From a virus: 64,000 nt of DNA. The DNA is taken from UHGV virus genome UHGV-0174779; one strand, 5' to 3'. The notes beneath the pieces are model-generated. The model was not told the origin of the DNA. It saw nothing but the letters and a program-made list of their open reading frames with translations, and ran no database searches. Both the position numbers and the translations under genes were made by a program. This document shows, in pieces, positions 20,332-38,132 of this stretch (position 1 is its first letter; every line of letters starts with the position of its first letter).

Positions 20332-20583
20332 ATGAAAAACTTCCAAGCTGCACCAATAACTAAAGTGATCGCAGTTAATGATGTGATGATGACTGTTCCT
20401 CTGAACACTCGTCACATTGCGATTGATAAGATGGGCTATGTGTGGGCTTGGAAGATTAAGCCCTCGTACAATGAACTCTTTGATGAGTTTGTTTGTACTG
20501 GCACATATAGCCCTACGTTCTTGGGTTTGTTTGGAGAGTTTGAAGGTCAGTATAAAATCATCACTCTCCCTGCTTGTGCTTGA
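20332..20583 (+). CDS. Hypothetical protein
   Basis: ORF 20299..20583; ATG 20332 immediately after upstream stop. Confidence 0.45.
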   Translation: MKNFQAAPITKVIAVNDVMMTVPLNTRHIAIDKMGYVWAWKIKPSYNELFDEFVCTGTYSPTFLGLFGEFEGQYKIITLPACA

Positions 20584-20590
20584 GGATTAA

Positions 20591-20696
20591 CGAGAGCTCT
20601 TAGTGAGGGTGTATCTTCCCCGCCTTCTAAGCGGTCGTTAAAGAAGTAAATGGAGTATGCAGGTTCGAGTCCTGTCACCCTCGCTAAGAGCTCTTG
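20591..20696 (+). other. Long inverted repeat forming a 21-bp stem that encloses a tRNA-like T-arm (candidate RNase III site or structured RNA)
   Basis: cgagagctcttagtgagggtg (20591-20611) pairs with caccctcgctaagagctcttg (20676-20696) with two G-U pairs; enclosed GGTTCGAGTCC matches the tRNA T-loop consensus. Confidence 0.4.
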
Positions 20697-20703
20697 AGGT
20701 ATT

Positions 20704-21219
20704 ATGAAGCTAGATCTAAGTAAAGCAGTTGTTGATAAAGGTGTTGGTTATTTGTATGTGTACCAACCAACACACCCTATGGCCAATAAAGCTGGAAAGG
20801 TGTATGTTCATAGATATGTTGCTCAAAATTTCTACGGTGTCGAACTGAACTCTGACCTAGTGGTTCATCACAAGGATGAGAATAAGTTAAACAACGAACC
20901 ATCTAATTTAGAAATCATGACTTATGAGGAGCATAGCAGGCACCATCATGGGGCTGTCATGGAAGAAAGGTTATGTTCTTTTTGTGGAGAGATTTACCTT
21001 GTTTCAGAGAATAGCAACCAAAGGTTTTGCTCACAGCTTTGTGCCAAATTAGATAGCAGACGGTTTGAAATAACAAAAGAATCTCTTCAGTCTTTAATAG
21101 ACATTTACCCCGTGTATGTAGTAGGGAGGTTACTGAGTGTTAGTGATTCGGCTGTCCATAAGAGATGTAGGATTCTTGGTGTTGTTAAAAAGCCGAAAGG
21201 TTTTTGGTTAACTAAATAG
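20704..21219 (+). CDS. HNH homing endonuclease
   Basis: 171 aa; VHHKDENKLNNEPSNLEIMTYEEHSRHH HNH motif, C-terminal helix-turn-helix-like region. Confidence 0.7.
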   Translation: MKLDLSKAVVDKGVGYLYVYQPTHPMANKAGKVYVHRYVAQNFYGVELNSDLVVHHKDENKLNNEPSNLEIMTYEEHSRHHHGAVMEERLCSFCGEIYLVSENSNQRFCSQLCAKLDSRRFEITKESLQSLIDIYPVYVVGRLLSVSDSAVHKRCRILGVVKKPKGFWLTK

Positions 21220-25239: not shown

Positions 25240-26211
25240 ATGTCAATCTCCACAACGATCGTACCTCTGAATCTTCAACAAGATTTAGGGGAACAGAAGT
25301 TCTTAGGTCGTGGGTGCTTCGGTATTCACAACTACATGCAAGGCCAAGTCATAAATGACATTAATGGCGACTCTGTAATGGAAGAAGGGATTCATAAACG
25401 CTTCAACCGTGATATCAACTTGCAATTGGAGATGTTGAATTACTGGACTCACTCTTTTCATGGTCTCGCTGCATCTGACATTGAAAAGAACTTGGTTGAA
25501 ACAGCAGACATTATGAACTCTATGTCTTGCTATCGTGATGTATTTACGATCACTTCAGCGAATAGTGTTGCTGTCAACCTCCGTGAGCATCCAGCAGATC
25601 AAATCTTCACAGGACTTATGCTCTTCCGTAGTATTCTGGAAGGGCAGTATCGTGGAATGGATTTCCTATCAGAAGGAATTGAAGACAGGGAAGAGTGGCT
25701 GAAGCGTAAACGCATCGGAATTGCTCTAGTGTTAGCTGGGTTAGGTCGAGACTTCTTCGGTGGATGGTCTCAACGAGGAACCTCCAATGGGAGTGGAGAG
25801 AACACATCCATTGTTATTAACAACAATATGTCAGCAGCAGCATTCCTTCCTTTGGTTGTAGACTCTGATGAATACACGAAACAAGTGTGGGTTCAAAACC
25901 CCTTCGGTGTTGGTGACAACAAGGACGGTTATGTTCGCAACCATAACCAAGATGCCTTACGAAGATTTGCTCGTGCTAAAGATCAAGACCCGGACGAGTA
26001 TGAAACAATGTCAGAGTGGTTAAGACTCTGGTCCAGCTGTCATGGTCACAAACGTGAAACAATAGACAATAAGTTGGAAAACATTACAGTACAAAACTTT
26101 ACAGCCCGATTGATTCAGCGTACTGGTCCAACTTCTGGCCTTACGACTGAAGAAGTTGGTAACACAATCTCATCTCTCTTTTCTGAACTAGTGGAGTATT
26201 ACAATGACTAA
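25240..26211 (+). CDS. Hypothetical protein (member of ligase/amidotransferase block)
   Basis: 323 aa, 10-nt gap from upstream gene, overlaps downstream start. Confidence 0.55.
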   Translation: MSISTTIVPLNLQQDLGEQKFLGRGCFGIHNYMQGQVINDINGDSVMEEGIHKRFNRDINLQLEMLNYWTHSFHGLAASDIEKNLVETADIMNSMSCYRDVFTITSANSVAVNLREHPADQIFTGLMLFRSILEGQYRGMDFLSEGIEDREEWLKRKRIGIALVLAGLGRDFFGGWSQRGTSNGSGENTSIVINNNMSAAAFLPLVVDSDEYTKQVWVQNPFGVGDNKDGYVRNHNQDALRRFARAKDQDPDEYETMSEWLRLWSSCHGHKRETIDNKLENITVQNFTARLIQRTGPTSGLTTEEVGNTISSLFSELVEYYND

Positions 26212-27010
26212 GCGCAAATTCTTAATAGGCAGCGACCCTGAGCTCTTCGTTCGTACTAGCAACGGAATCATCACCTCTGTAGCCGGTCTTCTAGGCTGCT
26301 CTAAGGACGATAAGATCGCTCTGGCTAAGGATGTTCGTCTTCAAGAGGACAACGTATTGGCTGAGTTTGATATTGACCCACAGAGCGGTTTTGAAGCGTT
26401 TAATGATAACATGCAACGTGGTATTGATCTCACCAATAGAGTCCTGAACAAACTGGACATGGAAACAGCTCCGGGTGTTAGCTCTCACATCTTCACTGAA
26501 GAGGAGATGAAGACTTTCAATGAATCAGCGTTCATCTTCGGATGTACTCCTGATTTCAACGCTTTCACTGGTCAGAAGAATCCATCCCCGACTTCTCAGA
26601 ACAAGGGGCTTCGTACTGCCGGTGGTCACGTACATCTTGGCGTAGTTGGTTCTTTGGATATCACTCTGCAAACTCAGATGATGCTGGGTGTGCTGTGTGA
26701 CTACTTCCTATCACTCCCAGCAGTTATCATGGATAAAGATACTCGCCGTAAAGAACTTTATGGCAAAGCATCTGCAATCCGTTATAAGGACTACGGTATT
26801 GAATACCGTTCACTGTCCAACTTCTGGATTAACGATCGTGAAAATCGTAAGTTTGTTTACGATCAGGTTGACAAGGTTGTTCAGCAGTGTGATATGTCCA
26901 CTCTGATGGCATTGCACTCTCGTCTTCCGATTGAGAAGCTTCACGAAATTATTAACGGTAATAACGTTAAAGAAGCGGACCAGCAGATCAAACTCCTTCA
27001 GGTAGCATAA
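26204..27010 (+). CDS. Possible carboxylate-amine ligase (amidoligase-like, weak)
   Basis: 268 aa; N-terminal GSDPELFV and central GGHVHLG loosely resemble the G-x-E-x-E and H-x-H elements of the neighbouring amidoligase. Confidence 0.4.
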   Translation: MTKRKFLIGSDPELFVRTSNGIITSVAGLLGCSKDDKIALAKDVRLQEDNVLAEFDIDPQSGFEAFNDNMQRGIDLTNRVLNKLDMETAPGVSSHIFTEEEMKTFNESAFIFGCTPDFNAFTGQKNPSPTSQNKGLRTAGGHVHLGVVGSLDITLQTQMMLGVLCDYFLSLPAVIMDKDTRRKELYGKASAIRYKDYGIEYRSLSNFWINDRENRKFVYDQVDKVVQQCDMSTLMALHSRLPIEKLHEIINGNNVKEADQQIKLLQVA

Positions 27011-27019
27011 GAGGTTATC

Positions 27020-27637
27020 GTGAGCTTAGTAGCTGATTTTTCTCATTACTATAGTGGCACATGGATTGCTAAACGAGCAGGCAACATCAACCTTCCCTGT
27101 TTTGTGATTGGTGTTGAGCAGAGAGGTAACTTCCGCAGCGACGACTTCTCACATGAAGCAGAACAAGCTCTGTACTTTGTTGTAGAGCAATGGTACAAGA
27201 ATGAGAACGGGATTCTCCGAAACACTACGATGAATATTCCAGTGTTTGACCCAACCTTGATTCTTGAATCACCTGATGTTGGCTATCTGTTCCATAATGG
27301 TAACACTGTAAGCTGGACTCATATCAACCCTGTTCGTCAGAGAGCGAAGGGTTTGGTGGGTAACAAGATTCGAAATGCTCCGGGGGTTGGTCGTTCTATC
27401 TCTGGGGAAATGGTTTACAGTCTATTCAATCCTGAATTTGATGGATTGGTTACTCGTTACATTTACATCAACCCTACAGATGGTAAAGTGCATTATAAAG
27501 GTGCACGGGTAGGTCAGGTAGATCTGGAAGCACCTCGTGACTCTTACGGTCAGCAACCGATGCGACTTCTGGAACATTTTCATCACATCTCTGAAAACCT
27601 TAGCAATTATAATATTACGTTGGTGGATTCGTTATGA
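27020..27637 (+). CDS. Hypothetical protein (member of ligase/amidotransferase block)
   Basis: 205 aa, GTG start, stop overlaps next start. Confidence 0.5.
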   Translation: MSLVADFSHYYSGTWIAKRAGNINLPCFVIGVEQRGNFRSDDFSHEAEQALYFVVEQWYKNENGILRNTTMNIPVFDPTLILESPDVGYLFHNGNTVSWTHINPVRQRAKGLVGNKIRNAPGVGRSISGEMVYSLFNPEFDGLVTRYIYINPTDGKVHYKGARVGQVDLEAPRDSYGQQPMRLLEHFHHISENLSNYNITLVDSL

Positions 27638-28737
27638 CAACTGTAGCGCAAACTTTTGGATATCGAGAAGGTCGTTTAACTGAGGCGCATAGTTCAATTG
27701 CACTTCAGTGCGGTGTCGGTATTGAACTTGAACTCGAAGGTTCTGAACATATCGAAGCAGATATGTGGGATTGCACAGAGGATGGTTCCCTGCGTAACGG
27801 TTGTGAAATGGTATGTTCACGACCTTACAACGGACAGGAGTTGTTAGACGCTATCAACAACCTGAGTGAAGCAGTAGCTGAATCGCACGCCGAGGGGACT
27901 TGGCGTTGCTCTACTCACGTTCATATGGATATGAGGGATGCTGATAGTAATATCCTCAAGAAGACCATTCTAGCTTGGACCTTCTATGAAAAGATGTTGT
28001 TCAAGTGTTCAGGCTACCATCGTTACCGTAGCAACTTCTGCCCTGCTTTCGCAGTGGTACAAGCACAGGTAATGAATGCCTCTGACGCATTTAACTACGA
28101 CGATGAAGAGTTCTTCAACCGTCTGGTTCGTTCATGGGATAAATATACATCTCTGAACCTTCTGCCACTTGCCCAATATGGTTCGATCGAGTTCCGTATC
28201 AGTGAGCCTAAGTGGAAACGTGGTCAACTTCTCAATCTGGTTAACCGCTTCTTAATGTTGAAGAAGCTGGCTTTAGATAACGCAGAGATGAGCAATGATC
28301 AGTTTATCGAGCATTTAAATACTGTACGATTTGCCCCAATGCTTCCTTATCTTCCACTAGATTACAGTCTGGATGAATTGGATTTGCATTCAGGGTATTG
28401 TATGGCCCGTGATGTTTTGTACTGCCGTTCTCATGAAGTAGAGCAGTCTGGTCGTATTCGTTTACGTCGAACCAACCCAAGTGGAGAAGTTCTTGTTGAC
28501 TTACGTCTTATCTCAGACTTCTATGGATACCTTGGATATGTCCGAGGGAATGCTAACAACTTGTACCAAGAGATTTTGGTCATGCTTAATACAACAGATC
28601 TATCTACTGTACGATCTGCACCAGAGCAATGTATCCGTGAGATCTTTGACTTACTTCGTGAGTCAGGCCATATTGATAATAATATCACAGGGTACATTCC
28701 AGATCATCTGGAGTATCAGTTAGAGCAAGCGCTGTAA
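27634..28737 (+). CDS. Amidoligase (glutamine-synthetase-like carboxylate-amine ligase family)
   Basis: 367 aa; GVGIELELEG, EDGSL, CSTHVHMD, FRISEPKWKRG motifs typical of phage-type amidoligases. Confidence 0.6.
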   Translation: MTTVAQTFGYREGRLTEAHSSIALQCGVGIELELEGSEHIEADMWDCTEDGSLRNGCEMVCSRPYNGQELLDAINNLSEAVAESHAEGTWRCSTHVHMDMRDADSNILKKTILAWTFYEKMLFKCSGYHRYRSNFCPAFAVVQAQVMNASDAFNYDDEEFFNRLVRSWDKYTSLNLLPLAQYGSIEFRISEPKWKRGQLLNLVNRFLMLKKLALDNAEMSNDQFIEHLNTVRFAPMLPYLPLDYSLDELDLHSGYCMARDVLYCRSHEVEQSGRIRLRRTNPSGEVLVDLRLISDFYGYLGYVRGNANNLYQEILVMLNTTDLSTVRSAPEQCIREIFDLLRESGHIDNNITGYIPDHLEYQLEQAL

Positions 28738-28816
28738 TCAATGGGTGCCTCTGATAAAGGGGCACAATTTAAAGGTTAATTAGATGAAAGGGTTTACCCT
28801 TCAGGTGGATTAGAAA

Positions 28817-30847
28817 ATTTGCGGCATCGTATTAGCTGGCGGTAATCTGTCAAGCACCGATTTAGACGTATTCAACCAACTCTTTTATGCTGGGGTATTC
28901 CGAGGACAACATTCCTCTGGTATCTTTGGTCAGCGTAAAAGTACTAAGGAAGTCTTCACTTATAAGGAAGCTCTTCCCTCTTTCGCATTCATCCTACAAG
29001 ATGAGTATAAGAAGCACACCACTGGTGAAACATCTTATACTGTAGCACCTTCATGGATTGTTGGTCACAGTCGTCATGCAACGAAAGGTGCAGTTAACGC
29101 CAAGAACGCCCATCCTTTCCAACACGGTAACATCACTCTGGTTCATAACGGAACCTTGATGGACCAAGATCTGTTACCTGACAGTAAAAACTTCGAGGTA
29201 GACAGTGAGAACATCTGCTACTCTATTAACACTATTGGTGCAGCAGAGACTATTCAAAAGCTGGATGGTGCTTTCACCTTAATCTGGCATGATGCTTCTG
29301 ATAACCGTCTTCATATTATTCGTAACGAAGAGCGTCCTTTCCATCTCGCACGTTGTAATAGAGATTGGTTTGGTGCTTCTGAAGAAGATATGCTGATGTG
29401 GATTCTGAAGCGTTCTAAGTCTCACAAAAACCGAATTGATGAGCACTTTGAATGTAAAGTTGGTACAGAATATATCTTTGATATGTCAAACAACAGCATG
29501 ACTCTGGTTGAAGAGGTCGCCCATGAGCTTCCGGTTTTTACGGTAGTCAATCGTTGGGCCAGTTACTACTCGAACAACTACAGCCAAAGCAATTATCAAA
29601 GCTCCTCAAAAAGCAGTACAAGCAATCCTTACGACACGAAGCCGGGAGTGACAGCGGCAGACGTTCGTCGAAGAAACGCAGTGGTAAGTCAAAACAAAAT
29701 CGCAAGCGATCGAAACATTGATATTCGCCGCGACATGACTGTGGAAATCACACCACATGAATTTGTTCCCTATGCAACTGCTGGTGCTGTTCCTTCTCGT
29801 GGTAAGATGATTGGTTATATCTACGATGAGAAATCTCAAGAGTACATTGAAGGTGATGTTCATAACGTAGACATTAAGGCTTATCAGGATGCCCTGAAAG
29901 ACCCTAAAATTGTTTACCGTGGGACAGTATCCTGCATCTCCGAAGTCGATGCTATGGTTCGTTTAGTAATCACAGCAGGTCGTTTTGTTGACCCATCTCT
30001 GGAGAAAAAGGAGCCTGAGTCAACTACTGCTGACTTCGATGATGATATCCCTTTTGACATGAATGATAGTTTCGTCAACAAGAATGGCGTTACTATCACT
30101 CGTAAATTCTGGGAAGCACACTCTCATGGTGATTGTGGTGGTTGTGACAAGCACATTGATTGGAAGGATGCACCTAAAGCAGTCTTCGCATATCAGTGCT
30201 ACTGGCATCCCGAGTGTCTGGAAAGGTTGACTAAACCTAAAGAGGAAGAAGAGGAGGAGACTCCTATCGGTGTTTGTGAAATCTGTGGTGAGGTTAAAAC
30301 AGAGAATGAGTTCGATGAAGAACTTAGCCGCCTCCGTGGTGAAGATATCTGTAAAGACTGTGCTGTAGAAGTAAAGAAGAAAGTGTCTAATGCTACGATC
30401 AAAGATGGTTATGTCTGGATTAAAGCAACAGATACAACAAACACCCGTCGTCCTGAAATTGCTGTACGTGTAACTGAGGAAATGATTGGTCGTATGACCG
30501 TATTACCCTCCTCAGCGAAACAAACAGGTATCACTCTGGAAGATGTTGTTGATGCTTATGTTGAGAAACGTGGCAACAGTATTTTTGCAATCTCGACTAA
30601 GCCAAAAAAGGAGGAACCTGCTGAGAAAGCAGGTGTGTTTCCTGAATCACGAACAGCTCTCCGCAAAACTGTTGTCAGCTTCGACGGAAATCGAAGCACT
30701 GACTTCACCAAAGCCATGTGGTCAACCCTCGGATACTGCTCAGAGTGTTTTAAGCAGATTCCGTGGCGCGATGCTGAAAGTTGTACGCTTGGTTCTATGA
30801 ATCAAGTTTATTGTAATTCTCCTAAATGTTCATTGAATAGAGGTTAA
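28817..30847 (+). CDS. Class-II glutamine amidotransferase (Ntn-hydrolase) fused to Cys-cluster C-terminal domain; probable AUU start
   Basis: ORF track starts at 29156, but the same frame upstream encodes (I)CGIVLAGG...FRGQHSSGIFG...NAHPF...LVHNGTL, the N-terminal Cys and HPF/HNG signature of class-II GATases. No ATG/GTG/TTG precedes the Cys; AGGTGGA lies 8 nt before ATT 28817. C-terminal part has three Cys4-like clusters. Confidence 0.55.
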   Translation: MCGIVLAGGNLSSTDLDVFNQLFYAGVFRGQHSSGIFGQRKSTKEVFTYKEALPSFAFILQDEYKKHTTGETSYTVAPSWIVGHSRHATKGAVNAKNAHPFQHGNITLVHNGTLMDQDLLPDSKNFEVDSENICYSINTIGAAETIQKLDGAFTLIWHDASDNRLHIIRNEERPFHLARCNRDWFGASEEDMLMWILKRSKSHKNRIDEHFECKVGTEYIFDMSNNSMTLVEEVAHELPVFTVVNRWASYYSNNYSQSNYQSSSKSSTSNPYDTKPGVTAADVRRRNAVVSQNKIASDRNIDIRRDMTVEITPHEFVPYATAGAVPSRGKMIGYIYDEKSQEYIEGDVHNVDIKAYQDALKDPKIVYRGTVSCISEVDAMVRLVITAGRFVDPSLEKKEPESTTADFDDDIPFDMNDSFVNKNGVTITRKFWEAHSHGDCGGCDKHIDWKDAPKAVFAYQCYWHPECLERLTKPKEEEEEETPIGVCEICGEVKTENEFDEELSRLRGEDICKDCAVEVKKKVSNATIKDGYVWIKATDTTNTRRPEIAVRVTEEMIGRMTVLPSSAKQTGITLEDVVDAYVEKRGNSIFAISTKPKKEEPAEKAGVFPESRTALRKTVVSFDGNRSTDFTKAMWSTLGYCSECFKQIPWRDAESCTLGSMNQVYCNSPKCSLNRG

Positions 30848-36845: not shown

Positions 36846-38132
36846 ATGATTGTTATCCCGATTAACCGAATTGCAGATAAGGTTGCTCAACAACCTGATA
36901 TCACTGTTGGTCGTCACTTCATTGAACAGTTGATTAACAACAACTTGATTCCAGACTGTATTTGTCCCATCATCACTGGTGGGGCTGTTCGTGATGCTGT
37001 TCTTAATAACAGAGCACCTCATGACATTGATATCTTTATTGTCAGAGGACAGGCCCCAAGAACTCGAAATACCTTTATCCACCATGACCAGTGGCAAGAT
37101 CTCGGACGAGAGGTTGAAAGTAATGTGAAGGAATGGCTAGAATCACAAGATATTGAATATGCATCCCTTCTTGCTGAATCTACAGATGAGCCGTATACTG
37201 GGACTTCTCAACTAACATTCACTGATATTATTGAGTTTCAGTGGAATGGGGTTCGTATCCAATTCATGTTTAATTATCCTACTTCTATTGAAGAGGTATT
37301 GGATAATTTTCCTATGATGTGCCGTGGTGCGATGACTCTTGACAAGCTGTTCATGACCCCCCAGGGATATTTGGCTATGACCTCTCCTTGTCCAGTGGTT
37401 GTCTCTAGTCGTGAAATCAAGTATGTTCACAAGAAGTGGCCTAATTCACAGGTATTAAGATTCTCCGATCCATCTGTTGCATATCAATATATGGCACAAA
37501 CTCGATACCTTCCTACACCTCAACCAGTTAGTCATCTGGTCAACGAACGAGGTCAGGTTGCTCTTATTGAGGATACAACAAGTGCTCATTATTGTGTTAA
37601 TCGTGACATGAGTCGATTCTTTGGGATCCCTTATGAAGAGATTCAGTTAATGTCAAGCATTCATAGCTCTAGCCAGATTCATGCGTATTGGTCTGAAGGG
37701 TTGACAAATTTAACAACTAACACGGGTGGTGATCTGCTTGGTCGAGAAGAAGACTCTAACCGACACAATGCAATTGAAGGGGTTTTTGTATCCCCTACAA
37801 TGCGTCGAGCACAAGAGTCACGAAGAGTAAGCCCTACTCGTAGAATATCTTTTGAAGATCTTGGTATTACAAGCGATTCTATGGAGCAATGGATGGCTAG
37901 ACCTTCTCGTGGTCGATCAAATGGCTTTACTGTCGGCGCACGTCAGTTCTCTGGTCAGGGTTTTGCTGTTGGTGATATCAACGCACCTGTTAGGGCTGTG
38001 TGGACTGATGAAGATATGGTAGAGAGTCGCGCTGATCAATTTGTTTCAAATAATCCTGAAGTATTAGAACCTCAAACCCGTACAGTTCGGTTTGCCGATG
38101 AATCGGGTCGCGGTTTCTCTTTTGAAATGTGA
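36846..38132 (+). CDS. Nucleotidyltransferase of the CCA-adding / poly(A)-polymerase head type
   Basis: ORF 36789..38132; ATG 36846 directly after the exonuclease gene stop. Motif ITGGAVRDAVLNNRAPHDIDIFIV matches the GGxVRD...DxD signature of class-II tRNA nucleotidyltransferases; C-terminal 300 aa unrecognised. Confidence 0.55.
   Translation: MIVIPINRIADKVAQQPDITVGRHFIEQLINNNLIPDCICPIITGGAVRDAVLNNRAPHDIDIFIVRGQAPRTRNTFIHHDQWQDLGREVESNVKEWLESQDIEYASLLAESTDEPYTGTSQLTFTDIIEFQWNGVRIQFMFNYPTSIEEVLDNFPMMCRGAMTLDKLFMTPQGYLAMTSPCPVVVSSREIKYVHKKWPNSQVLRFSDPSVAYQYMAQTRYLPTPQPVSHLVNERGQVALIEDTTSAHYCVNRDMSRFFGIPYEEIQLMSSIHSSSQIHAYWSEGLTNLTTNTGGDLLGREEDSNRHNAIEGVFVSPTMRRAQESRRVSPTRRISFEDLGITSDSMEQWMARPSRGRSNGFTVGARQFSGQGFAVGDINAPVRAVWTDEDMVESRADQFVSNNPEVLEPQTRTVRFADESGRGFSFEM

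Follow-up and report, generated by a model that had tools for sequence, protein, structure and literature searches.

Between a gene-108 homologue and a lipoprotein gene, bacteriophage phiEco32 carries a canonical, CCA-encoding gene for tRNA-Arg(UCU) (NC_010324 66354-66427; positions 2211-2287 of locus L001). Described here is the RNA element that occupies exactly the same slot in the virus genome UHGV-0174779, a stretch of 64,000 nucleotides hereafter referred to as the window. The window belongs to a virulent Kuravirus, that is, a phiEco32-like podophage, and is ~93% identical to phages FH3, ES17, and 1-6af. The sequences to either side can be aligned with those of phiEco32 (window 20332-20590 and 21214-23), the difference being confined to the cassette that they enclose. 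The element, a 79-nucleotide (nt) tRNA-like RNA encoded at 20605-20683 on the plus strand, resembles the phiEco32 tRNA in its slot and genus, in its UCU loop with U33 and A37, in its 7-bp acceptor stem, in its nearly identical T-arm (CAGGUUCGAAUCCUG), in the D-loop motif AAUUGGA, and in the presumed reading of rare AGA codons. It differs in that its D-stem encloses the anticodon arm, its D-loop lies 3' of that arm, the gene encodes no CCA, and a duplex of 14 bp lengthens the acceptor stem. The comparison indicates that the element stands in for the canonical tRNA-Arg(UCU) of the sister phages, and at a probability of roughly 0.7 we read it as the gene for a functional, re-wired decoding tRNA-Arg(UCU). 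The phage and viral loci examined are given L-numbers where needed, as for example L001 for phiEco32, L002 for Bas94, L378 for FH3, and L379 for Bas93.

Several other described systems invite comparison. The D-arm-lacking mitochondrial (mt) tRNAs, such as metazoan mt-tRNA-Ser(AGY) and the "armless" species of nematodes (Romanomermis), are likewise natural and presumably functional departures from the cloverleaf (PMC7609411; PMC9976931). In those tRNAs, as in the window element, only a few nucleotides connect the acceptor stem to the anticodon stem, and it is because of this short stretch that general tRNA models align the element as a D-arm deletion. Unlike the mt tRNAs, however, the phage element retains a relocated D-stem and a full D-loop with A14, R15, G18G19, and A20, and it has a canonical T-loop, a normal length of 79 nt, and bacterial hosts with standard translation. 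Permuted and split tRNA genes, known from Cyanidioschyzon merolae and Nanoarchaeum equitans, are restored by archaeal or eukaryal splicing at bulge-helix-bulge (BHB) motifs. The element shares with them a non-canonical order of gene segments, but its acceptor strands stand in the normal order, two internal segments are exchanged, and no BHB-like motif is present. RNase III stems include the sites in T7 early mRNA and the 16S/23S leader-trailer stems, and a role for the enzyme in the processing of T4 tRNA precursors has been reported. In a similar manner, the mature RNA considered here is bracketed in some members by a leader-trailer duplex of 20-23 bp; the candidate duplex differs in being continuous with a tRNA acceptor stem and restricted to a CCA-less subset, and it is known from sequence. 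Finally, DNAVirus_2961 is a tRNA-like candidate structured RNA from IMG/VR that overlaps ARAGORN tRNA-Arg calls "only sometimes" (Fremin et al. 2023, PMC10690425). The family to which the window element belongs overlaps such calls at L129, L333, and L371 only. DNAVirus_2961 was published without an analysis of its architecture, anticodon, or segment order, and judged by its description it may correspond to the family. A full-text literature search returned no description of a tRNA with a swapped-segment topology, and no phage, viral, or permuted tRNA is mentioned in a 2020 review devoted to non-canonical species.

The element fills the entire intergenic space of the window, and no sigma-70-type promoter lies near it. 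Its outer portion is a stem of 21 contiguous pairs formed by cgagagctcttagtgagggtg (20591-20611) and caccctcgctaagagctcttg (20676-20696), in which the pairs 20592-20695 and 20604-20683 are G-U. This stem, with its two G-U pairs, had been described in an initial annotation made from the letters of the window; the span proposed there, 20589-20700, was correct as to location, but it began 2 nt too far upstream and ended 4 nt too far downstream. Among all inverted repeats with arms no more than 200 nt apart in the window, this one is the best (19 nt at 95% Watson-Crick as compared with 87% or less for every other). The 121-nt region folds with a z of -5.7, and none of 200 shuffles was as stable, a result that bears out the stem. 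The Rfam tRNA model (RF00005) matches 20605-20683 (+) marginally, with 30.2 bits against a gathering score of 29, whereas a permissive cmscan of 20500-20800 gave nothing else above noise and ARAGORN reported neither a tRNA nor a tmRNA in the window. In the Rfam alignment, the 7-bp acceptor stem, U8 A9, an anticodon hairpin with the loop CUUCUAA, and a near-consensus T-arm are all recognizable, while 4 nt stand in place of 15 D-arm consensus positions and ~20 nt are inserted in the variable region.

The relatedness to tRNA proposed in the initial annotation is upheld by this alignment of the acceptor, anticodon, and T arms. Likewise, the T-loop consensus GGTTCGAGTCC is found at 20662-20672, the CCGC-CTTCTAA-GCGG hairpin with its UCU triplet at 20620-20634, and the canonical D-arm is indeed absent, with only 5 nt between A9 and the anticodon stem. 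Other portions of that interpretation did not survive. It held that no anticodon arm fits, yet the hairpin is a regular anticodon arm of 4-5 bp with a 7-nt loop containing U33 and A37. It suggested a mini-helix of acceptor stem and T-arm, yet the RNA is a complete tRNA-like molecule with an Arg anticodon arm, a relocated D-stem and D-loop, and a large covarying family. The earlier interpretation is thus partly supported.

A BLAST search with the 121-nt region retrieved 226 phage records, comprising not only sister podophages (Bas93, Bas94, 1-6af, FH3, and TH42) but also unrelated phi92-like, Felix-O1-like, rV5-like, and jumbo myophages. A query of the Streptomyces-phage type retrieved 158 records, including Streptomyces cluster-BE, Klebsiella, Proteus, and Vibrio phages. 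IMG/VR was searched with four pattern scans, each of which left a different part of the molecule unspecified. In total, 53 distinct family sequences were collected from phages of E. coli, Klebsiella, Proteus, Vibrio, and Streptomyces. The pattern TATC-N8-CTTCTAA-N7-TTAA returned at least three family members, and a 15-mer scan of genome_contigs returned at least one, the matches listed being mostly chance in both cases; the latter scan leaves presence in cells unsettled. Searches of 5,426 complete E. coli genomes and of 72,556 plasmids retrieved no element.

The secondary structure was tested on an alignment of 52 distinct sequences (A2), and on a 30-sequence version as well, with the acceptor stem at columns 1-7/72-78, a proximal helix at 11-13/40-42, the anticodon stem at 15-19/27-31, and the T stem at 55-59/67-71. 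In A2, 98.2% of the cells are paired, as compared with 34-47% when the partners are slid by 1-3 columns. Double-sided changes are observed in 16 of the 20 pairs, and none of 500 shuffles reached any of the five observed measures. All seven pairs of the acceptor stem show such changes, with 99.7% of the cells paired, and the anticodon stem covaries at each of its five pairs. The proximal helix, which in the window joins 20615-20617 to 20644-20646 and encloses the anticodon arm, is paired in every one of the 52 sequences, its variable positions being UA/GC/AU/CG and CG/UA/GC. In the T stem, 98.8% of the cells are paired, and pairs 56-70 and 57-69 covary. The anticodon stem of the window element has a C-U mismatch as its first pair followed by four Watson-Crick pairs; that first pair is formed in most relatives. 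Two other pairings were considered and set aside. The minimum free energy (MFE) fold of the single sequence, in which CUUC pairs with GGAG and CUUCU with AGAAG, was rejected because these pairings are only 59-74% paired across the family and are never compensated. A GUUA/UAAY pairing flanking the 3' strand of the proximal helix, noticed by eye, suffers an uncompensated G to A change in L007 and clashes with the covarying helix.

A covariance model built on the proposed structure (R1) scores the window element at 95.6 bits (E = 2e-28) and reveals no second copy in the window. When R1 was run over 74 loci, family members scored 85-100 bits and ordinary tRNAs at most 33 bits. The Rfam tRNA model, in contrast, gives family members 30-39 bits as compared with 44-73 for neighboring tRNAs, hence the patchy annotation of the family. 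In GenBank records, the element is unannotated or labeled "hypothetical protein," tRNA-OTHER, tRNA-Undet, tRNA-Leu, or tRNA-Val. That it represents a conserved RNA of the tRNA family with the secondary structure given here seems to us almost certain. In deposited genomes including UPEC06, A73, BIS47, Mydo, 121Q, and Yaboi, the element lies under a "hypothetical protein" coding sequence (CDS) or is labeled tRNA-Leu or tRNA-Val; these labels are seemingly errors of annotation, and a model specific to the family would correct them. One member, L328 6111-6183 (-), is truncated, its 5' half being intact through GTAATT and its T-arm and acceptor 3' strand missing, and is probably a pseudogene.

The window element displays a 7-bp acceptor stem followed by a discriminator, a T-arm of the GTTCRANYC type, and an anticodon arm with U33 and a purine at position 37. 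No D-arm hairpin lies between position 9 and the anticodon arm, but the strands of a D-stem and a D-loop do exist in a swapped order. If a canonical tRNA is divided into segments A (positions 1-9), B (10-21), C (22-47), and D (48-76), then the element reads as a tRNA-Arg with the order A-C-B-D, in which B (the 5' strand of the D-stem and the D-loop) and C (the 3' strand of the D-stem and the anticodon arm) have been exchanged. The conserved order begins with the acceptor 5' strand, U8 A9, U-C-N-N, a single nucleotide, and the anticodon arm, and it continues with CGUUAA-N-N, N-N-G-U, A-A-U-U-G-G-A-G, U-A-U, and the T-arm. The combination of N-N-G-U with AAUUGGA equals canonical positions 10-13 and 14-20 (the phiEco32 tRNA-Arg has GUUC-AAUUGGA), and U-C-N-N directly precedes the anticodon stem, as do canonical positions 22-25/26. 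It is from this matching of the conserved pieces to canonical positions that the order A-C-B-D follows. Within the first linker, columns C32, T34, A36, and A37 of A2 are invariant, and this segment probably plays the role of the variable loop.

Mapped in this fashion, all 52 sequences contain U8, A14, R15, correctly spaced G18-G19, A20, and Y48. In each of them position 48 is Levitt-compatible with position 15 (A-U), and the D-stem has at least 3 bp; G10-C25 occurs in 44. The T54 Psi55 C56-type T-loop and the other nucleotides of the L-shaped core are likewise present in 52/52 when the relocated segment is mapped as 10-21. ARAGORN detected none of the 52 in native order and all of them after an in silico exchange of B and C, calling 74-76-nt tRNA-Arg molecules with the correct anticodons. 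The scores of these swapped-back sequences averaged 115.3 (range 106.8-119.8), and the median for 221 genuine tRNAs from 13 of the arrays was 113.4. Controls in which segment B was reversed, rotated, or shuffled gave 106.5, 105.6, and ~107.5, respectively, or ~8 points below the swapped-back sequences. Simple detection by ARAGORN was discarded as a test of the swap, because the program tolerates poor D-arms and most controls with a reversed or shuffled B were also detected; the scores and motif criteria were employed instead.

The three new junctions, from 9 to 22, from 47 to 10, and from 21 to 48, join residues that are neighbors in known tRNA structures. Because these junctions link close residues, the RNA could rebuild a normal L-shaped core with its tertiary contacts. 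The contacts so restored would be U8-A14, A15-U48, and those of G18/G19 to the T-loop, with the D-stem stacked on the anticodon stem. As the proximal helix covaries, the swapped order would be that of the folded, mature form.

The anticodon loop in the window, CUUCUAA, extends from 20624 to 20630, with the UCU anticodon at 20626-20628. Across the family the loops are CUUCUAA (44), CUUCUAC (3), UUUCUAC (3), UUUCUAA (1), CUUCGAA (1), and UUCCUAA (1). All 53 members accordingly have Arg anticodons (51 UCU, one UCG, and one CCU) with C35 invariant, and only Arg anticodons persisted in the scan that left the whole anticodon arm unspecified. The loop retains U33, A37, and mostly 36-UAA-38, with position 36 being U in 52 members and G in one. 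The determinants for E. coli arginyl-tRNA synthetase (ArgRS) are A20, which is the main one, C35, U36 or G36, and A or G at position 73 (PMC9976931). An A follows G18G19 in 52/52 members, and A or G serves as the discriminator in 47 of 53, such that A20, C35, U36, and A/G73 (G in the window) are all present in the window element. We infer that the host ArgRS charges the element through A20, C35, U36, and G73, with A20 being recognized in its relocated context. A separate observation concerns the tRNA-Arg(UCU) of phiEco32, in which the acceptor stem (GCGCCCU/AGGGUGC) contains a G3-U70 wobble. The G3-U70 pair is the classical alanine identity element, and its presence raises the question of whether that tRNA could be mischarged by alanyl-tRNA synthetase (AlaRS).

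Family elements sit in tRNA arrays, and CCA is encoded in 30 of the 53 members. The copy in phage Antha is equipped with a promoter of its own (TTGACA/TATAGT), and its GCCA end is encoded. In L063, which contains 26 tRNAs, Arg-ACG is the sole canonical Arg species and the element contributes UCU. L048 carries Arg GCG, UCG, and CCU together with a UCU element, L009 carries Arg UCU and ACG together with a UCG element, and L373 carries Arg ACG and CCG together with a CCU element and a variant UCU element. The element thus fills in the Arg anticodon absent from the canonical set of large arrays. In the plus-strand open reading frames (ORFs) of the window, AGA accounts for 10.6 and AGG for 3.7 of every 1000 codons, a usage that we take to be several-fold above that of E. 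coli. The element would read AGA (and AGG), which are heavily used codons of this phage.

The same layout is not confined to the main family. R1 hits of intermediate strength (37-62 bits), at sites where ARAGORN made no call, possess it with other identities (Table 1). All six variants were undetected natively by ARAGORN and became good tRNA-Arg or tRNA-Ile calls, with scores of 107-122, after the swap-back. The relocated loop of the Ile type is RNUGGUU as compared with AAUUGGA in the Arg type, and the relocated D-loop is thus isotype-specific; RNUGGUU presumably resembles the D-loop of E. coli tRNA-Ile. The member at L345 3407-3493 contains an extra hairpin between its relocated D-loop and T stem. 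The Ile and other Arg versions are rarer than the main Arg family.

A different explanation for these features is that the RNA is a non-decoding tRNA mimic, namely a decoy or sponge that would engage a host defence nuclease directed at tRNAs, an enzyme that modifies tRNAs, or ArgRS. For the sake of recognition it would have kept its anticodon loop, its elbow, and its acceptor end, and the altered core would block ribosomal use or cleavage. The unusual architecture favors such a role in that its conservation is extreme and extends to single-stranded linkers, CGUUAA among them, a pattern suggestive of protein recognition. Defences that cleave tRNAs are common, and there are suggestions that some of these cut D-loops (PMC12916289). 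The RNA was, moreover, encountered only in virulent phage genomes and not in the E. coli genomes and plasmids mentioned above. A decoy, however, would have no need of an anticodon that complements the canonical Arg set of each array, and it would not be expected to replace a canonical tRNA-Arg(UCU) in a syntenic slot, to encode CCA in many members, or to retain the ArgRS determinants and the N6-threonylcarbamoyladenosine (t6A)-type 36-UAA-38 loop. The sharing of the layout by Ile and other Arg anticodons, and the high AGA usage in a window with no other tRNA, also speak against it. We consider the decoy unlikely and favor a decoding tRNA.

In the window, a 14-bp leader-trailer extension and the 7-bp acceptor stem form the continuous 21-bp helix. 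At least 11 of 14 leader-trailer positions pair in 10 of the 23 CCA-less members and in none of the 30 CCA-encoding ones (Fisher p = 6e-5), the latter averaging 5.3/14 pairs, which is the chance level. The duplexes continue the acceptor stem in register, and position -1 has the discriminator as its partner (T20604 and G20683 in the window). Their sequences are unrelated between lineages (the window, L020, L029, L129, L160, L323, L341, and L371), and yet the extension is always 13-16 bp, giving a continuous helix of 20-23 bp, or about two helical turns. Compensatory changes are observed as well: T-A to C-G and C-G to T-A between the window and Bas93/FH3, and T-A to A-T between the window and L342. 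In Bas94 (L002 1505-1615), the leader is like that of one lineage (GAATTCTTAAT) and the trailer like that of the Bas93 lineage (CTAGAAGCTCTTGG), with only 11 of 14 positions pairing, an arrangement suggestive of recombination and of a precursor duplex that has been weakened.

The restriction of the recurring leader-trailer duplex to members that lack CCA makes a processing stem the probable interpretation. The duplex would serve as the handle by which a CCA-less tRNA precursor is cut out of the polycistronic mRNA. The cut would most likely be made by RNase III, a candidate already named in the initial annotation and plausible for the 14-bp extension. RNase P, 3' trimming, and the addition of CCA, whether by an enzyme of the host or by the phage nucleotidyltransferase, would come next. 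The 21 pairs reach the length at which RNase III acts (a near-perfect duplex of ~20 bp or more), although we give no better than even odds to RNase III specifically being the nuclease. The phage nucleotidyltransferase is a 428-residue protein encoded by ORF 36846-38132 (+), which matches phrog_12715 with 765 bits. Searches with this ORF gave no PDB or NCBIfam match and only the generic "nucleotidyltransferase" PHROG, and it is possibly a divergent CCA-adding or poly(A) polymerase-like enzyme.

The duplex could also be the point of the element. According to this alternative, the RNA acts mainly in cis on the operon mRNA, affecting its processing or stability, in a form of tRNA punctuation: RNase III would cut at the 21-bp duplex and RNase P at the tRNA-like body, expression of the genes on either side would be tuned by these cuts, and a functionless RNA would be released. 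Such a role would agree with an element that fills the whole intergenic space with no sigma-70-type promoter nearby, with a trailer that, in the window as in Bas93 and Bas94, ends against the Shine-Dalgarno sequence of the ORF that follows, and with a duplex of about two turns in 10 independent members. Most members, however, have no duplex, encode CCA, reside in tRNA arrays, and sometimes have a promoter of their own, and a cleavage signal would require neither an exclusively Arg anticodon nor U33, A37, and a D-loop bearing A20. We regard this explanation as quite improbable, and the duplex is better viewed as a means of releasing a decoding tRNA.

Several considerations weigh against the assignment of the element as a re-wired, decoding tRNA. 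The discrimination afforded by the swap-back rests on a margin of ~8 points and on explicit motif checks, and the search patterns partly impose the invariance of the motifs, though complementary scans each freed a different part. A G stands at the equivalent of A21, and positions 13 and 22 face each other as U-U. Should the 3-bp helix do no more than stack on the anticodon stem, its polarity with respect to a canonical D-stem would have to be as mapped. At L341 1522-1598 (-), a tRNA-Arg(UCU) of canonical length adjoins a re-wired copy, a finding at odds with replacement in the strict sense, although the anticodon stem of this tRNA seems defective (CCGGA/CCCGA, with three pairs and effectively a 9-nt loop), and it may be a decaying gene beside its replacement. 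ORF 36846-38132 is weakly linked to CCA-adding enzymes, with a PolyA_pol head at 21.9 bits against a cut-off of 23. It is also conserved in Kuraviruses whichever type of tRNA they carry, and for this reason its role in CCA addition is only a lead. Finally, all of the functional claims made here are drawn from sequence.

Given that the swapped-back segments are excellent canonical tRNAs, and that phages encode RNA ligases and repair enzymes, the gene might be permuted at the level of the DNA only, its transcript being cut and re-ligated into a tRNA of canonical order, as happens with the permuted tRNA genes of the red alga Cyanidioschyzon merolae or with split tRNAs. To arrive at A-B-C-D, however, would take two internal cuts and two ligations rather than a simple circularization. 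There are no BHB or intron-like motifs at the junctions, where few nucleotides are available (1 nt from the helix to the anticodon stem), and the 3-bp helix covaries as a helix of the swapped order. No ligase or splicing endonuclease was seen consistently beside the genes, although this was not tested systematically. Re-ligation is, in our view, very improbable, and the swapped order is more readily understood as that of the functional tRNA itself.

The HNH endonuclease gene located downstream in the window is a clean insertion of ~525 bp relative to Bas94, between the trailer and the lipoprotein gene, with window 20700 aligning to L002 1615 and window 21229 to L002 1618. Bas94 contains the element and no HNH gene. 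In Bas93 (L379 1259-1708 (-)) and FH3 (L378 931-1371 (-)), a different HNH gene, whose product is 31% identical to the window HNH protein over the core, lies directly upstream of the element. The FH3 ORF, annotated just as a hypothetical protein, abuts the element leader. Because the HNH gene is absent in Bas94 and lies on either side in other phages, the RNA gene is resident and the HNH gene mobile. Homing-endonuclease traffic on both sides may, speculatively, help the cassette to spread. The comparison of Bas94, Bas93, and FH3 also rules out the element as a remnant or scar of an HNH insertion, as had been suggested in the initial annotation. Indeed, that it might be a decaying tRNA pseudogene, an attachment-site-like fragment (attP), or such a scar, as the silence of ARAGORN, the adjacent HNH gene, and the truncated copy at L328 might lead one to suppose, is effectively refuted by 53 distinct, strongly covarying sequences from phages of distant hosts, by its occurrence without HNH in Bas94 and with HNH on either side elsewhere, and by the lack of the similarity to E. 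coli chromosomal DNA that an attP core would need (5,426 complete genomes searched) in a phage that is virulent.

Table 1. Parts of the window element, its neighboring gene, and variants with the same layout at other loci. Positions are those of the window unless a locus is named.
Feature	Position	Strand	Basis or remark
Precursor duplex, 5' leader strand	20591..20604	+	Pairs with 20683-20696; sequence, inverted repeat, recurrence in CCA-less members, compensatory changes
Acceptor stem, 5' strand GAGGGUG (positions 1-7)	20605..20611	+	Rfam alignment; covariation
U8 A9 connector	20612..20613	+	Invariant in alignment A2, columns 8-9
UCUU, read as D-stem 3' strand (canonical 22-25)	20614..20617	+	Covarying helix, columns 11-13/40-42
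Single nucleotide between proximal helix and anticodon stem, read as position 26	20618	+	A2 column 14; mapping inferred
Anticodon arm	20619..20635	+	Stem 20619-20623/20631-20635; Rfam alignment, covariation, anticodon census
Linker 1, CGUUAAAG, with conserved CGUUAA motif	20636..20643	+	Joins anticodon stem to D-stem 5' strand
AAGU, read as D-stem 5' strand (canonical 10-13)	20644..20647	+	Covariation; swap-back test
Relocated D-loop, AAAUGGAG, with A14, R15, G18 G19, A20	20648..20655	+	Motifs in 52/52; invariant in the scan leaving this stretch free
Linker 2, UAU	20656..20658	+	Last U read as Y48, the putative Levitt partner of A15
T-arm, stem GCAGG/CCUGU, loop UUCGAGU	20659..20675	+	Rfam alignment; covariation
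Acceptor stem, 3' strand CACCCUC	20676..20682	+	Rfam alignment; covariation
Discriminator G73	20683	+	Followed by CUA, so CCA not encoded in the window
Precursor duplex, 3' trailer strand	20684..20696	+	Abuts HNH Shine-Dalgarno GAGG (20696-20699)
Free-standing HNH endonuclease gene (neighbor, outside the RNA)	20704..21219	+	PF13392 HNH_3, 47.2 bits; phrog_15471; insertion relative to Bas94
Arg-ACG variant	L370 2689-2763	+	R1; same layout
Arg-GCG and Arg-UCG variants	L345 3326-3402 and 3407-3493	+	R1; same layout
Ile-UAU variant	L009 5506-5582	+	R1; same layout
Ile-GAU variant	L078 3280-3355	-	Also L025 5865-5940, L030 6606-6681, L038 6022-6097
Two UCU variants	L078 1232-1310, L373 13348-13426		Linker 1 shorter, linker 2 longer

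The loci examined displayed further features of note. Streptomyces-phage-like contigs with a re-wired tRNA also carry a tmRNA, as at L048 6424-6703 (+), for which ARAGORN gives the tag peptide ANSMNASAFALAA; an Rfam tmRNA match occurs at L011 10374-10454 (-), again in a contig with a re-wired tRNA. Odd ARAGORN calls were encountered in the arrays at L075 2109-2182 (+), L152 928-997 and 2598-2672 (-), L323 262-337 (-), and L370 1770-1845 (+). Among the odd calls are a "tRNA-Pyl" with a CUA anticodon in a 231-kb contig, which is likely an amber suppressor, and several "tRNA-???" entries with two-base anticodons. These arrays may hold further non-standard tRNAs. In the window itself, 26204-30847 (+) contains a cluster of ORFs with matches to a COOH-NH2 ligase (PF14395) and an amidoligase (PF12224) and weak matches to glutamine amidotransferase. 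It appears to be a phiEco32-type peptide-ligase/amidoligase gene set unrelated to the element.

Hundreds of sequenced phages that infect Enterobacteria, Vibrio, and Streptomyces carry the family, as do many contigs of uncultivated viruses, and yet it is almost unannotated. Because the class is unannotated or mislabeled, inventories of phage tRNAs and analyses of phage codon usage systematically miss an Arg(UCU) isoacceptor. Whether the phages as a group maintain a natural class of fully functional re-wired tRNAs, mostly Arg and more rarely Ile, that adopt the L-shape, are charged by the host, and decode on the host ribosome is a broader proposition, to which the sequences lend about as much credence as doubt. 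If true, the order of the secondary structural elements of tRNA would not be fixed in nature. Should the fold and function hold, the class would bear on the tRNA topology that is required by synthetases, EF-Tu, RNase P, modification enzymes, and the ribosome, and it would provide a new scaffold for tRNA engineering. The combination of a CCA-less gene with a duplex that extends the acceptor stem offers a testable model for the excision of a tRNA from a phage operon, and the HNH genes on either side in sister phages make this a good system in which to follow how tRNA genes are spread by homing endonucleases. The re-wiring might itself be adaptive, in that it could confer resistance to host nucleases that cut D-loops or recognize the canonical core. 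It could also give immunity to homing endonucleases that target canonical tRNA genes, thereby aiding spread together with the flanking HNH genes.

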